Below are positions 2,301 to 56,571 of a stretch of 64,000 bases of DNA, one piece after another. This stretch comes from a virus. Its lineage: Duplodnaviria > Heunggongvirae > Uroviricota > Caudoviricetes. The stretch spans positions 24,725 to 88,724 of IMG/VR virus record IMGVR_UViG_3300036790_000261; one strand, written 5' to 3'. The position numbers were made by a program, and so were the translations under genes. Position 1 is the stretch's first letter; each line of letters starts with the position of its first letter. A model generated the notes under the pieces. That model had not been told where the DNA came from. It was given only the letters and a program-made list of their open reading frames with translations, and ran no database searches.

Positions 2301-2524
2301 CTGCCGCGCAAGCGTGGCCGTGGGCGCTGTCGGCAGTGACGCTGCTTAGTGTCTGGGTCATCGGGCTAAAGCGGCACGAGGGCTGGCTGATTGGCCTGGC
2401 CGCGGAAGTCTTGTGGGCAGTGTGGTCCGTGCTGTACCACGAATGGGGCTTCCTGGTGTCCGCCGGGGCGTTCAGTGTTATCTACGCCCGAAACTGGTGG
2501 CTGTGGCGGTCAACGGCAAGCTGA
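2297..2524 (+). CDS. small membrane protein (2 TM, holin-like topology)
   Basis: WALSAVTLLSVWVIGL and LIGLAAEVLWAVWSVLY hydrophobic segments. Confidence 0.4.
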   Translation: MTAAQAWPWALSAVTLLSVWVIGLKRHEGWLIGLAAEVLWAVWSVLYHEWGFLVSAGAFSVIYARNWWLWRSTAS

Positions 2525-2539
2525 CTGCCACGTGGCAGT
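2524..2539. promoter_or_regulatory. conserved palindrome ACTGCCACGTGGCAGT (copy 1 of 6)
   Basis: Perfect 16-bp palindrome immediately after a gene 3' end; same sequence at 18153, 30787, variants at 41955, 50893, 56556. Confidence 0.5.
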
Positions 2540-2610
2540 TGAACTAGGATTGAACCGATACCCGAGGCCGTAGTCTGCGGAGCCGGGGCGTACCTGACGA
2601 AGGATGCCCT

Positions 2611-2928
2611 GTGACCTCTATCCCGCTGTTTAACCGGCCCGACGAGTGGTTCTGCCCCAACTGCGATGTCACCGATGTCACCGCGCCGCTGCCGCCCGGC
2701 CAGTCCCGCTACCACCCCTGCCCCGGCCTGCACGGGCTCAACGCCCCGCTGATCCGCCAGGGCGTGAACGTCAAGGTAGAAGCGCACGAGCGCGAGGACT
2801 ACCTGAACGGCGACCTTCAGCAGACAGGCGACAACGGCCGTGTCTACATGAACGTTGAGGTCACCCGCGAGGACGGCACGGACGTTACTGTCTTCGCCGG
2901 GCTCGCCCGCGCAGAGATGAAGGTGTGA
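2611..2928 (+). CDS. hypothetical protein
   Basis: ORF with high GC3; ATG preceded by GAAGGATG region. Confidence 0.4.
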   Translation: MTSIPLFNRPDEWFCPNCDVTDVTAPLPPGQSRYHPCPGLHGLNAPLIRQGVNVKVEAHEREDYLNGDLQQTGDNGRVYMNVEVTREDGTDVTVFAGLARAEMKV

Positions 2929-2931
2929 GCC

Positions 2932-3453
2932 GTGACCTGGACTACCTCAGCGATCTTCCAGCAGGCGGCGCTCAATCCACTGCTCGGTAAGGCCACCGGG
3001 TCTACGAACCCCACGACTTTCGGCAGCTGGACGGCTGACACCATCAACGTCGCGCTGTTTCTAACGGGCGCTACCCCGGACAAGACCGCCGCCGTCGGTA
3101 GCACGGGTTACAACACGGGTGTCTGGACGACAGGTAACGAGGCCCCGGGCACGGGTGGCTACACGCAGGGCGGAACCGCACTCGCCTCTAAGGCGAACAC
3201 TATTGACTCGGGTTCGTCTTCGCTGTGCTTCACCGCGGCTAACCCCTCCTGGACTAGTGCCACCATCTCTAGCGTGTTTGGCGACTTGGTCTACGACATC
3301 ACGATTGCTTCAGCGGGTAGCACTGTCGCCAAGCAGGGGTTCTGCTTCAACTACTTCGGCGGCTCGCAGGGCGTTACGGCGGGGACGTTCACGATTCAGT
3401 GGGCTACCCCGCCCAGCGGTGCCGTTACCGCGGTTTTCAACTTCGCTGTCTGA
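2932..3453 (+). CDS. hypothetical Thr/Gly/Ser-rich protein (probable virion-associated)
   Basis: High GC3; GTG start overlapping upstream stop; composition like neighbouring 3486 gene. Confidence 0.4.
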   Translation: MTWTTSAIFQQAALNPLLGKATGSTNPTTFGSWTADTINVALFLTGATPDKTAAVGSTGYNTGVWTTGNEAPGTGGYTQGGTALASKANTIDSGSSSLCFTAANPSWTSATISSVFGDLVYDITIASAGSTVAKQGFCFNYFGGSQGVTAGTFTIQWATPPSGAVTAVFNFAV

Positions 3454-3485
3454 CCCTTCCGGCTACCGCCTGAGGGGAGGCCGCC

Positions 3486-4991
3486 GTGGCCACGCTTACC
3501 CGCGTTCAGCACAACAGCATGACGACGACCAGCACCACGGCCACAAACTTCAACACAACCCTTGGTGCCGGGGACACGGTCGGCAACCTGCTGGTAGTCA
3601 CCATTGTGCTGGGCACCAACGGGCTTACGCTGACAGCCCCCTCTGGCTGGGTTCAGGCGGGTTCCTCGGAGGTCGTTTCCGGGTCTCTCGATACCCGGAT
3701 CTATTACCTGGTGGTCAGCTCGGGCAGCGTCACTAGCTTCAACTGGAGCTTCGGCGCTACCGCGCACTCATTCGGCTGGACCATCGACGAGTGGAACAGC
3801 TCTTCCGGATGGCAGGCTAGCCCGGTAGACAGCACCGCCGGGGCCGTTCACACGTCACCGTCGACTGCGGTCAACTGCGGTACCCCGTCGGCGACGACCC
3901 AGGCGTCTGAGCTGTGGCTCGGCGTGCTGTCCTGGGCGAACAGCGGGCAGACGCTGTCGGGTGTGACCGGCGGCTGGTCGACCGGCGATACCGCTACGTT
4001 TACCGGCCAGAACACGCAGACGGCGTTCTTCCAGATCGCCACGACGACCGGCACCCCGAGCCTCGCCGCCACCATCAGCGCGTCCACGGTCAACGCGGGC
4101 GTTGTCGCCACCTTCATGCCCGTCGCCGGCACCACCGTTAACGCGGGGCTCGCCACGGCCACCGGGCTTGCGCTTCAGGTTCCGTCTAACGCCCGGCTCG
4201 CCACCGCTACAGGTACTGCCCTCCAGGTCCCGGCGCCTGCTGGCCTGGCTACGGCTGCCGGCGCTGCGTTCAAGCCGCTGTTCACCGTCCCGGCCCAGCT
4301 GGCGACCGCGACCGGCACCGCGCTGCAGGTTCCGTCTAAGGCGGGGCTCGCCCACGGCACCGGCAGTGCCTTCCAGGTTCCGGCCCCGGCTGGCCTTGCG
4401 CACGGCGCGGGCAGCGCGTTCACCCTCACCCCGTGGAAGGACACGGTCTTCGCGGGGCTGGCCGCGGGCTTCGCCGAGACGTTCCAGCCGACCCCGCGCA
4501 TCCTGCGCACCCCGCTGAACCTGGGGGCGGTGCTGACCGAGGTCACGGCAGACGGCTTCCTGCGTGTAGCCACCGCTGATGCTACGTTTACCCTCGCGGA
4601 CTACGGGGCTACCCTGGCACTAGCTAACTTCGGCGCAAGCCTGACGGGATGGACGATGCAGACGGCCCCGCTGACTCTTAACGAGTTCAACGACGTCACC
4701 ATCAGTATCACCGTGACGCAGAACGGCAGCCCGCTCAACCTGACCGGCGACACGCTTAACCTGCTGCTGAAGACGGCGCCGAACACCCCGGACTCCAGCG
4801 CGCTGATCTTTTCCTCGGCTGGCGGGTCCCCCGCGATCGTCATCACCAACGCAGCTGGCGGCCTCGCTACCGCGATCATCCCGAACACCGACCTCGACGC
4901 CGAGACCTACACGTTCTACCGGCTCGACGTGGTCAGCGGCGGCCTGACCAACACCACGCTGTACGGCAGCGTCGTCTGGATCTCGCTATGA
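3486..4991 (+). CDS. hypothetical structural protein with six ~16-aa tandem repeats (AGLATATGTALQVPSx)
   Basis: Repeat block at nt ~4141-4440; Thr-rich N-terminus. Confidence 0.45.
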   Translation: MATLTRVQHNSMTTTSTTATNFNTTLGAGDTVGNLLVVTIVLGTNGLTLTAPSGWVQAGSSEVVSGSLDTRIYYLVVSSGSVTSFNWSFGATAHSFGWTIDEWNSSSGWQASPVDSTAGAVHTSPSTAVNCGTPSATTQASELWLGVLSWANSGQTLSGVTGGWSTGDTATFTGQNTQTAFFQIATTTGTPSLAATISASTVNAGVVATFMPVAGTTVNAGLATATGLALQVPSNARLATATGTALQVPAPAGLATAAGAAFKPLFTVPAQLATATGTALQVPSKAGLAHGTGSAFQVPAPAGLAHGAGSAFTLTPWKDTVFAGLAAGFAETFQPTPRILRTPLNLGAVLTEVTADGFLRVATADATFTLADYGATLALANFGASLTGWTMQTAPLTLNEFNDVTISITVTQNGSPLNLTGDTLNLLLKTAPNTPDSSALIFSSAGGSPAIVITNAAGGLATAIIPNTDLDAETYTFYRLDVVSGGLTNTTLYGSVVWISL

Positions 4992-55997: not shown

Positions 55998-56126
55998 TTA
56001 CCGGCTGCAGACGGGGCAGGCCGCCGAGATGCACATGAGCCCCCGGCACCCGTACCACCGCTGGTCGTCAGCTGACCACCAGCGGTGCCCTGGATGACAG
56101 GTTTCCTTAGTGCACTGCTGCTGCAT
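55998..56126 (-). CDS. Cys-rich 42-aa peptide
   Basis: MQQQCTKETCHPGH...CISAACPVC. Confidence 0.35.
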   Translation of the reverse strand: MQQQCTKETCHPGHRWWSADDQRWYGCRGLMCISAACPVCSR

Positions 56127-56230
56127 CAGTGCCCCCCGTGGACCGCGTTGACGACTGTGTTCGTGATGACGCAGGCCAGCAGGACCAGCACGGCCACGGT
56201 GAACAGCCATGAGCTTCCGTTAAGCTTCAC
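56126..56230 (-). CDS. 34-aa TM peptide
   Basis: GGGAAGAAGAAAC SD + GTG; WLFTVAVLVLLACVI. Confidence 0.3.
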   Translation of the reverse strand: MKLNGSSWLFTVAVLVLLACVITNTVVNAVHGGH

Positions 56231-56248
56231 GTTTCTTCTTCCCTGTAC

Positions 56249-56383
56249 CTAGCAGCTGTCGTGGCAGTTGGTGTTATGCGTCCCGCAGTGCTTGCCCGCC
56301 CGCTTGTCGCAGCAGTTGCACGTGCACTTACCCCCCAGGGTGCAATGGGCCTTGTCCCCCTCGGGCTTGGACGTTACGCTCAC
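56249..56383 (-). CDS. Cys/His-rich 44-aa peptide
   Basis: GAGGAGGAAG SD + GTG; GKCTCNCCDKRAGKHCGTHNTNCHDSC. Confidence 0.4.
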   Translation of the reverse strand: MSVTSKPEGDKAHCTLGGKCTCNCCDKRAGKHCGTHNTNCHDSC

Positions 56384-56444
56384 GCCTCTTCCTCCTCGGT
56401 AAGAATCGGGCGGCACCCCTGTCGTAGCAAGAGTGCCGCCCGGT

Positions 56445-56516
56445 AGCGGGTACGAGATTTGAACTCGTGTCTTCGGATTATGAGCCCGACAAGGTGACCA
56501 AACTCCTCCAACCCGC
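56445..56516 (-). tRNA. tRNA-Met (anticodon CAT; could be initiator or Ile-lysidine type)
   Basis: Acceptor GCGGGTT/TACCCGC (one mismatch), anticodon arm TCGGG-CTCATAA-TCCGA, T-arm ACGAGTTCAAATCTCGT. Confidence 0.65.
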
Positions 56517-56555
56517 AGGCTCACAGTATCACAGGTACTCACCAGGCGCAGGGTA

Positions 56556-56571
56556 ACTGCCGCGTGGCAGT
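56556..56571. promoter_or_regulatory. conserved palindrome variant ACTGCCGCGTGGCAGT (copy 6)
   Basis: Overlaps stop codon of minus-strand 56571 gene, just upstream of tRNA-Met. Confidence 0.45.

Follow-up and report, generated by a model that had tools for sequence, protein, structure and literature searches.

Why does a phage keep one short palindrome at widely separated places in its genome, and what reads it? The question arises in a 64,000-nucleotide stretch of DNA (the window) from an uncultivated tailed phage (Caudoviricetes; IMG/VR record IMGVR_UViG_3300036790_000261, positions 24,725 to 88,724). A first-pass annotation had noticed six near-identical copies of a 16- to 18-bp palindrome there, and had proposed that the sequence itself, rather than its potential to form a hairpin, is recognized, with a factor-dependent terminator as an alternative. 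We find that the motif is real, that purifying selection maintains its nucleotide sequence, and that each lineage has its own version of the arms. Most likely, a sequence-specific factor recognizes the palindrome, with a phage DNA-binding protein as the likeliest one, and the element is not an ordinary terminator. Recognition at the level of DNA, the identity of the binder and any regulatory outcome are what we infer from comparisons of sequence and predicted structure.

The palindrome and its arm types

We searched both strands of the window with the query AACTGCCRCGTGGCAGTT, allowing up to three mismatches, and compared the result with dinucleotide shuffles. There were 14 strand-hits at seven sites (Table 1) against 0.14 expected, and none of 100 shuffles reached the observed count. 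A 14-bp core query recovered the identical seven sites. One of these, CTGCCGCGCGGCAG at 36547, was rejected as a seventh copy. It is in a Q/P-rich open reading frame (ORF) that reads ELPRGSL at this place, and it is spelled with the commonest codons of the window (CTG CCG CGC GGC AGC), palindromic by chance. The orthologue in L007 (relatives are designated by the numbers of their sampled loci) has the peptide DLPRGT, in which LPRG is kept with different DNA (CTTCCCCGCGGCACG). Because the codons are the commonest ones and LPRG is kept with different DNA, we count the site as a coding coincidence, leaving six true copies.

The consensus of the six copies is (A/G)ACTGCC-RCGT-GGCAGT(T/C), a perfect or near-perfect palindrome of 16-18 bp. 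All six copies that had been reported are present, and their number exceeds chance as claimed (six against 0.14 expected in shuffles); the third had been placed at 30787-30802 and is actually at 30776-30793, 11 bp away. Copies 4 and 6 have the 20-mer TAACTGCCGCGTGGCAGTCA in common, in agreement with the earlier observation that they share a variant and identical flanks. Stop codons are built into both flanks of the copies (CTRA...TYAG). The asymmetry between TGA and TTA flanks is slight, and orientation is inconsistent among copies.

In a window that is ~85% coding by the gene list, three copies are fully intergenic, two overlap a stop codon only, and one is in an ORF. The statement that the copies always sit just after gene 3' ends holds only roughly (Table 1): copy 5, for example, is inside an ORF, and copy 6 is 139 nt past a stop codon. 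Copy 2 is between the tape-measure gene (13117-17997) and a 1744-amino-acid (aa) tail gene (18250-23484).

Copy 5 is 56 nt past the preceding stop codon and 46 nt into a lysin-like ORF. Across 17 homologues the lysin N-terminus has an ancestral Q-L-P-x-G-x-Q, with no insertion or deletion at the point of copy 5, which argues that this copy was born by substitution and not by insertion of a mobile element. LPRGS is found only in the window, L131 and L134, and all three spell it CTG CCA CGT GGC AGT. The codons CCA, CGT and AGT are rare (4.8%, 7.2% and 5.3% of their codon families in the window; joint P = 6.6e-5). Since this rare-codon spelling is kept in three diverged phages, we conclude that selection acts on the nucleotide sequence at copy 5. 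A protein-binding site at the head of the lysin gene could gate lysin expression; a terminator 46 nt into the gene would be harmful.

Homologues of a 575-aa protein from the tail-gene region (27473-29200) occur on many metagenome contigs of 112-123 kb, and we therefore place the window in a large uncultivated actinophage clade. Relatives were compared over ~21-kb loci around homologues of three window proteins. In the close relatives (L131, L134 and L135-137; 75-94% protein identity to the window), the CTGCC/GGCAG arms are invariant at orthologous places and the intergenic flanks have diverged. The centres at these orthologous sites are ACGT, GCGT or GGGT, and the arms never vary. Across copies, the variable 4-bp centre can also be TGGC or AGCT. 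Copies 4 and 6 have the same A-to-G change (ACGT to GCGT) on the same DNA strand despite opposite transcription, and their orthologues in L131 and L134 have ACGT, with one GGGT. The change arose either by parallel substitution or by conversion between sites 14.6 kb apart. Invariant arms around a free centre are usual in sites that dimeric proteins bind.

A more distant phage, Ga0435552_00001 (sampled as L007 and L138), has tail proteins that are 65-82% identical and a lysin that is only 49% identical. Its two loci contain no CTGCC..GGCAG copies. They contain six copies of cTAA-GTGCC-RCGY-GGCAC-TTAG (AAGTGCC-RCGY-GGCACTT; G-type, the window version being C-type). These are at the tape-measure stop, between two minus-strand genes, ahead of genes for a glycosyltransferase and a DNA methylase (one copy each), at a convergent junction after the lysin gene, and in the intergenic region of a divergent gene pair. 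In L162 the palindrome is AGGTGCA-N4-TGCACCT, present in three exact copies whose centres (GCGT, AGCC and GACT) are unrelated; one of these copies (L162:5024) is inside a primase ORF. Elsewhere there are two C-type copies (L139), one C-type copy (L163) and one G-type-like copy (L140). Arm types are never mixed within any sampled genome. Just past a small ORF downstream of the lysin gene, the copy is C-type in L139 (10981) and G-type in L138 (11043). After the tape-measure gene, the copy is C-type in the window, where it follows an inserted tRNA, and G-type in L007, where it is at the stop codon. A symmetric change common to all copies of a genome is as predicted by co-evolution with one trans-acting, 2-fold symmetric reader, and independent terminator hairpins would not yield one arm type per genome. 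The invariant arms, the diverged flanks and the lineage-specific arm types thus strongly support the proposal that the sequence is recognized, and not mere hairpin potential.

No close relative of the window was found in INPHARED (megablast and tblastn), and there was no match in a capsid search of IMG/VR or when the 501-aa protein encoded by ORF 3486-4991 was compared with GTDB genomes. Exact-motif scans of IMG/VR gave three unrelated single matches for the C-type and none for the G-type. In a 16-mer scan of metagenomes, all of the 120 matches listed were unrelated chance matches, and none encodes window proteins. The 18-mer had 21 single matches in 596 Gb of GTDB species-representative genomes, which is the level of chance, and thus is not a host repeat. 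Three contigs (L148, L152 and L157) of one Bacteroidota metagenome-assembled genome (GTDB Paludibacteraceae JAZLHD01) each contain the exact 18-mer RACTGCCACGTGGCAGTY, which may be an unrelated repeat family; every other genome with a match has just one.

Table 1. Palindrome copies in the window, their orthologues in relatives, and associated features. Positions are those of the window unless a locus is named.
Feature	Position	Strand	Remarks
Copy 1, GACTGCCACGTGGCAGTT	2523..2540		first bases overlap the TGA stop of ORF 2297-2524; 70 bp upstream of ORF 2611-2928
Copy 2, AACTGCCACGTGGCAGTT	18152..18169		perfect 18-mer; 2 nt past tRNA-Arg (18076-18149)
Copy 3, GACTGCCACGTGGCAGTT	30776..30793		convergent junction of + gene 30356-30727 and - gene 30899-31417
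Copy 4, AACTGCCGCGTGGCAGTC	41954..41971		overlaps the TAA stop of ORF 41503-41955; next ORF begins at 42087
Copy 5, AGCTGCCACGTGGCAGTC	50891..50908		inside lysin-like ORF 50845-51735, codons 16-21, QLPRGSQ
Copy 6, AACTGCCGCGTGGCAGTC	56555..56572		in a - strand block; 139 nt past the stop of ParB-like gene 56711-57751; 38 nt before tRNA-Met (56442-56517, -)
Seventh site of the motif search, rejected	36547-36564		
Copy 3 orthologue	L135 13359		likewise in L136/L137
Copy 4 orthologues	L131 1672, L134 320		ACGT centre
Copy 5 orthologues	L131 10049, L134 10049		inside the lysin ORF
Copy 6 orthologues	L131 15377, L134 15228		
GC-rich hairpin	30715..30775	+	15-bp stem GGCCCGCCCCUAGGC...GCCUGGGGGCGGGCC; directly 5' of copy 3
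Candidate binder, ParB/Srx-fold	56711..57751	-	346 aa; motif WDGQHRFEA; N-terminal ParB/sulfiredoxin fold, helical C-terminal part
tigRNA sub-arrays	53785-53960, 54670-54740, 55155-55430, 57780-58365, 59333-59611	-	single unit at 29824-29872
Nop/IS110-like Tas gene	58379-59401	-	340 aa; between sub-arrays; PHROG 4285 'transposase'

A candidate binder and its neighbourhood

We suspect that the palindromes are dispersed recognition sites, in double-stranded DNA, for a phage-encoded dimeric DNA-binding protein, an interpretation that seems to us about equally likely to be right or wrong. The 7-bp arms (AACTGCC) would serve as its half-sites, separated by the 4-bp centre, a spacer that the protein hardly reads. 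Bound protein would most probably be a roadblock, a silencer or a boundary that controls read-through between gene blocks, in the manner of phiC31 CIRs (conserved inverted repeats), L5 stoperators and RK2 KorB OB sites; this role is suggested by the location of the sites at transcription-unit borders and of one at the head of the lysin gene. Alternatively, the sites might nucleate a ParB-type clamp. If a phage protein does bind them, the sites would form a network of regulation or organization that spans the genome, in a clade of ~120-kb soil actinophages that is widespread and uncultivated. The three arms (ACTGCC, AGTGCC and AGGTGCA) would be a natural specificity series with which to learn how a protein of the ParB/Srx-HTH (HTH, helix-turn-helix) family reads DNA, and the motif would be a cheap marker of operon borders and of immunity-like groups in the clade.

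The best candidate binder in the window is the putative ParB-like protein encoded directly upstream of copy 6 (Table 1), and the link between them is circumstantial. An AlphaFold2 model, based on a 35-sequence alignment, has a mean pLDDT (predicted local distance difference test score) of 90.8. Fold matches in BFVD extend over ~290-350 columns (E 4e-13 to 9e-8) and are labelled 'Helix-turn-helix DNA binding domain protein' (mycobacteriophages Mercurio and Estes) or 'ParB-like nuclease domain protein' (Baee). Each of the seven relatives whose sampled locus spans the region (L131, L134, L138, L139, L140, L162 and L163) has a homologue. A palindrome is within 450 bp downstream of the gene in the window, L131 and L134, in L162, and in L140.

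Several observations weigh against this candidate and against a duplex-DNA reader in general. Fold comparison alone matched the protein; searches of Pfam and of PDB sequences gave no match, and fold matches in PDB were confined to the N-terminal ~85-125 residues, with modest Z. The protein has DGQHR in place of the canonical ParB motif for binding cytidine triphosphate (CTP), GxxRxxA. There is no palindrome beside the ParB-like gene in L138, L139 and L163, and covariation of residues with arm type gave no clear signal among only six sequences. Among the ~60 window proteins scanned with Pfam, PHROG and NCBIfam, there was no repressor, Cro, integrase or ParA. The analysis covered about half of a 122-kb genome and 21-kb pieces of its relatives. 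Wobble pairs in some copies, described below with the RNA reading, point the same way. Other HTH proteins encoded by relatives (Sigma70_r4 and HTH_17 in L162, HTH_17/MerR in L138, HTH_31 in L009, DUF397 in L007) were rejected as candidates, as they have no homologue in the window.

The ParB-like gene is close to a TIGR-Tas locus. Repeat analysis revealed ~36 tigRNA-like units of 37-38 nt within 53.8-59.6 kb. Each unit, on the minus strand, consists of ACGCC(SS)GGCCA, an 8-nt spacer, ACGAAACCCAA and a 7-8-nt spacer, and consecutive edges are complementary. The product of the Tas gene between the sub-arrays matches NCBIfam NF052498, 'TIGR-Tas system RNA-guided endonuclease', over profile positions 1-213 of 215 (E 3.6e-23), with a score of 82.7 bits that is below the 100-bit cut-off. 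The array agrees with the TIGR architecture that Faure et al. (2025) describe, CCA being the box C that precedes each spacer (PMC12045711). The same authors report a parB-like gene in an operon with tasA (PMC12045711). The locus is kept in L131, L134, L138, L139 and L163, each of which has its own spacers; the loci sampled from L162 and L140 yielded no Tas homologue, though both phages have palindromes and the ParB-like gene.

We think it very unlikely that the palindromes are parS-like loading or nucleation sites for a TasParB-type protein (the product of 56711-57751) working with the adjacent TIGR-TasA module. If this were true, the palindromes would be the first natural fixed DNA landmark for a TIGR-Tas locus. 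An arms race, with the tigRNAs of competitors (e.g., those with the spacers ACTGCCTC and GGCAGTA in L163) aimed at these essential sites, could then explain why sister phages differ in their arms. The combination of TIGR-Tas and a ParB-like gene makes the clade a good place to seek the natural role of TIGR systems.

Alternative readings

The palindromes might function as RNA rather than as DNA, with a 6-9-bp stem and a tetraloop at transcript 3' ends serving as a weak terminator without a U-tract, as a 3'-end stabilizer, or as a processing signal, for example beside tRNAs. A phage-specific RNA-binding protein or RNase as the reader would explain the lineage-specific stems. The copies are at or just past stop codons and beside tRNA-Arg and tRNA-Met, and the variable part is exactly a 4-nt loop. 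The minimum free energy (MFE) fold uses the palindrome hairpin at four of the six sites, although copies 1 and 4 fold otherwise. Base substitutions also fit an RNA hairpin, in counts that are small. Half of the six copies in L007/L138 have a C-to-T change (GTGTC...GGCAC). At L007:379 (+) and L007:13316 (-) the transcribed strand retains a G.U pair despite this change; at L138:11043 the G.U pair is kept on the plus strand of a convergent junction, where the transcribed strand is not assignable. In addition, the outer pairs of copies 1, 3 and 6 are G.U only in the sense orientation, extending the stem. However, copy 4 and its L134 orthologue are oriented wrongly for this extension, and copies 4 and 6, identical as DNA, differ as RNA (loops GCGU and ACGC). 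No U-run follows the stem at any of the six copies (UUGAAC, UUAGGA, UUAGCA, UCACAG, UCAGGC and UUACCC), and a terminator scan of positions 1-20000 found none at copies 1 or 2. Folding of 56-nt segments was no better than that of shuffles at five sites (z = -0.2 to -1.4). The one significant site, a 96-nt segment with copy 3 (-56.3 kcal/mol, z = -5.25), owes its stability to the separate hairpin just upstream (Table 1), which is likely the structural terminator of this convergent junction. Because that stem is already there, the palindrome is not needed as a structural terminator at copy 3. The features of an intrinsic terminator (a U-tract, extra stability and stems that covary between sites) are all missing; every copy in a genome has an identical stem, and RNA-binding proteins usually read loops, not Watson-Crick stems. 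Copies are also kept inside ORFs (the lysin gene, and the primase gene of L162), where a terminator would do harm. On these grounds, the alternative offered by the first-pass annotation, a factor-dependent or plain terminator, is unsupported, and we regard an RNA hairpin role more broadly as possible yet doubtful.

Nor does a purely selfish origin fit well. The palindromes could be mobile mini-elements (REP-like, MITE-like or targets of homing endonucleases; REP, repetitive extragenic palindrome; MITE, miniature inverted-repeat transposable element) that are homogenized within each genome and have no regulatory role. Their location between genes, at 3' ends and at convergent junctions, with stops in both flanks, would suit such elements, as would the uniformity of copies within a genome, their difference between genomes, and the turnover of sites among distant relatives. 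Homing endonucleases are active in the clade, one as an inserted HNH gene in L135 and another, by its NCBI name LAGLIDADG, as an insert in the window gene 33167-34999. Yet positions are stably orthologous in phages of 75-90% identity, the lysin copy arose by substitution within a pre-existing run of LPxG codons, and the element is absent from host-type genomes. No transposase of the IS200/RAYT type (Y1/HUH; RAYT, REP-associated tyrosine transposase) was found among the scanned proteins, and the PHROG 'transposase' match at 58379-59401 comes from the Nop/IS110-like Tas protein. Gene conversion is improbable as a means of homogenizing tracts of 14-20 bp at sites separated by many kb. We consider this origin unlikely. 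Least credible to us is that the palindromes are natural targets of the neighbouring TIGR-Tas system, whether for self-regulation by TasA or because competitor phages carry them. The Tas-like gene and ~36 tigRNA units are 2-3 kb from copy 6, and TasA is able to repress transcription (bioRxiv 10.64898/2026.09.09.750476). In TIGR-Tas targeting, spacers A and B pair consecutively with opposite strands of the site (PMC12045711, PMC13421893), and a tandem-spacer guide that binds both strands would suit a palindrome. Two spacers in L163, ACTGCCTC (present twice) and GGCAGTA, resemble the arms. L163 is alone in this, with three arm-like spacers against 0.4 expected, and the overall count is not significant; the spacers of the window, L131, L134, L138 and L139 contain no palindrome 6-mer, where 0.1-0.4 were expected. 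When contiguous targets were predicted for 136 units from six phages, there were six matches (at most one mismatch) against 1-13 in shuffled-pair controls, none of them at a palindrome. L162 and L140, again, have palindromes with no Tas homologue in the sampled locus. Since no window spacer carries such a 6-mer and no predicted target falls on a palindrome, the palindrome is not a tigRNA target on present data; for the sampled arrays, in which AACTGCCAC / GTGGCAGTT would be the spacers expected of such a guide, this proposal is largely refuted. No tigRNA self-target was found.

Known systems and neighbouring genes

A phage-encoded reader of dispersed DNA sites would have several precedents. 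The temperate Streptomyces phage phiC31 has CIRs of ~17 bp that are bound by the phage repressor. Like the CIRs, the palindromes are multiple copies of one inverted repeat, conserved in sequence and not in structure alone, and mostly intergenic at operon borders. Unlike in phiC31, arm sequence changes from one related phage to another, a coding region contains at least one of the copies, and the window yielded neither a repressor homologue nor an integrase nor signs of lysogeny. The analogy drawn earlier with the CIRs and their repressor seems reasonable as a statement of how the sites might work.

The stoperators of Cluster A mycobacteriophages are 13-14 bp long, asymmetric, oriented with transcription, and bound by a monomer. 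They too are dispersed in many copies near stop and start codons, and repressor bound at a stoperator halts elongating RNA polymerase. The window motif differs in being a 2-fold symmetric 16-18-mer with no fixed orientation, which contradicts membership in this class. According to two accounts of the L5 and Bxb1 repressors, the sequence of the sites co-varies between phages with the specificity of the repressor (PMC9283540, PMC6550527).

The palindromes also resemble ParB-parS and KorB-OB systems in being ~16-bp palindromes with several copies per replicon, some within genes. Plasmid RK2 has 12 dispersed palindromic OB sites for KorB, and chromosomal parS is TGTTNCACGTGAAACA. Bacterial parS has the same CACGTG centre and 16-bp symmetry as the window motif; only four of eight half-site positions match. 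The candidate protein departs from ParB and KorB in its DGQHR replacement of the CTP-binding motif, in a C-terminal domain called HTH only by the annotation of homologues, and in that neither ParA nor KorA was found among the scanned window proteins.

REP elements, the short palindromes past gene 3' ends in proteobacteria, are linked to RAYT transposases. The window palindromes have similar locations, past 3' ends and at a convergent junction, and they too are uniform in any one genome and unlike those of other genomes. They differ in that no RAYT was found, copies are far fewer, positions are orthologously stable, and one copy was made in frame by point substitution. By analogy, the palindromes most likely work like phiC31 CIRs, stoperators or KorB OB sites, with membership among intrinsic terminators and among stoperators proper contradicted. 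The kind of element is already known; this palindrome and its three-way specificity series are new.

The window has a guanine-plus-cytosine (GC) content of ~66%. Its genes encode a head-tail connector, a 1626-aa tape-measure-like protein, giant glycine-rich tail proteins, an SNF2 helicase, an exonuclease, glycosyltransferases and four tRNAs. At 18250-27464 are two giant ORFs (1744 and 1321 aa) whose homologues have Gly_rich_2 and Laminin_G_3 domains. Long GGC-repeat tracts in these ORFs dominate the direct-repeat output and raise local GC to 0.72. In the closest relative, L135, an inserted HNH/NUMOD4 homing endonuclease gene (5201-5797, -) separates the two giant tail genes; the window has no such gene at 23484-23499. 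The exonuclease-like gene at 33167-34999 (+; PHROG 1674) aligns to its L007 orthologue at residues 1-75 and 396-609 only. The ~320 residues between the aligned parts are an insertion, named LAGLIDADG homing endonuclease by NCBI, which is probably an intein or a free-standing homing-endonuclease insertion.

A sugar-modification cluster (GT1, two GT2 glycosyltransferases, an NAD-dependent epimerase/dehydratase and S-adenosylmethionine (SAM) methyltransferases) is just before the structural genes, at 42-2034 of the window and, in L004, at 5450-10130, upstream of the window. At 37781-41472 are genes for GT2, polysaccharide deacetylase and GH16. With such enzymes, the phage may glycosylate its own virion or alter the envelope of its host.

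Three further elements were noticed. The G-type phage has a second repeated word, with core GCACACGTG (10-mers CGCACACGTG and GCACACGTGC, strands pooled), at six places in L138 (3162, 8727, 11818, 11854, 11946 and 11982), four of which are clustered in the intergenic region after the lysin gene. Downstream of copy 2 (18170-18250 in the window, 720-800 in L007), the window and L007 have in common a conserved block, ATAGAGTCC-N-GGAGCGCC-GGT, that precedes the giant tail gene. It includes a TANNNT-type hexamer (TAGAGT) 15 nt past the palindrome, and may be a promoter or a 5' leader, which would put the palindrome over a -35 region. Lastly, a ~45-nt element, CTGCGG-N-GCA-N-CAAC-N-ACTGCCAC, is found near tRNA genes in the window (56243-56288 and 52102-52147, -), L131 (14961-15006) and L134 (11203-11248). 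It carries one half-site of the palindrome (ACTGCCAC) with no partner arm; possible roles are those of half-operator, small RNA and tRNA-linked processing signal.

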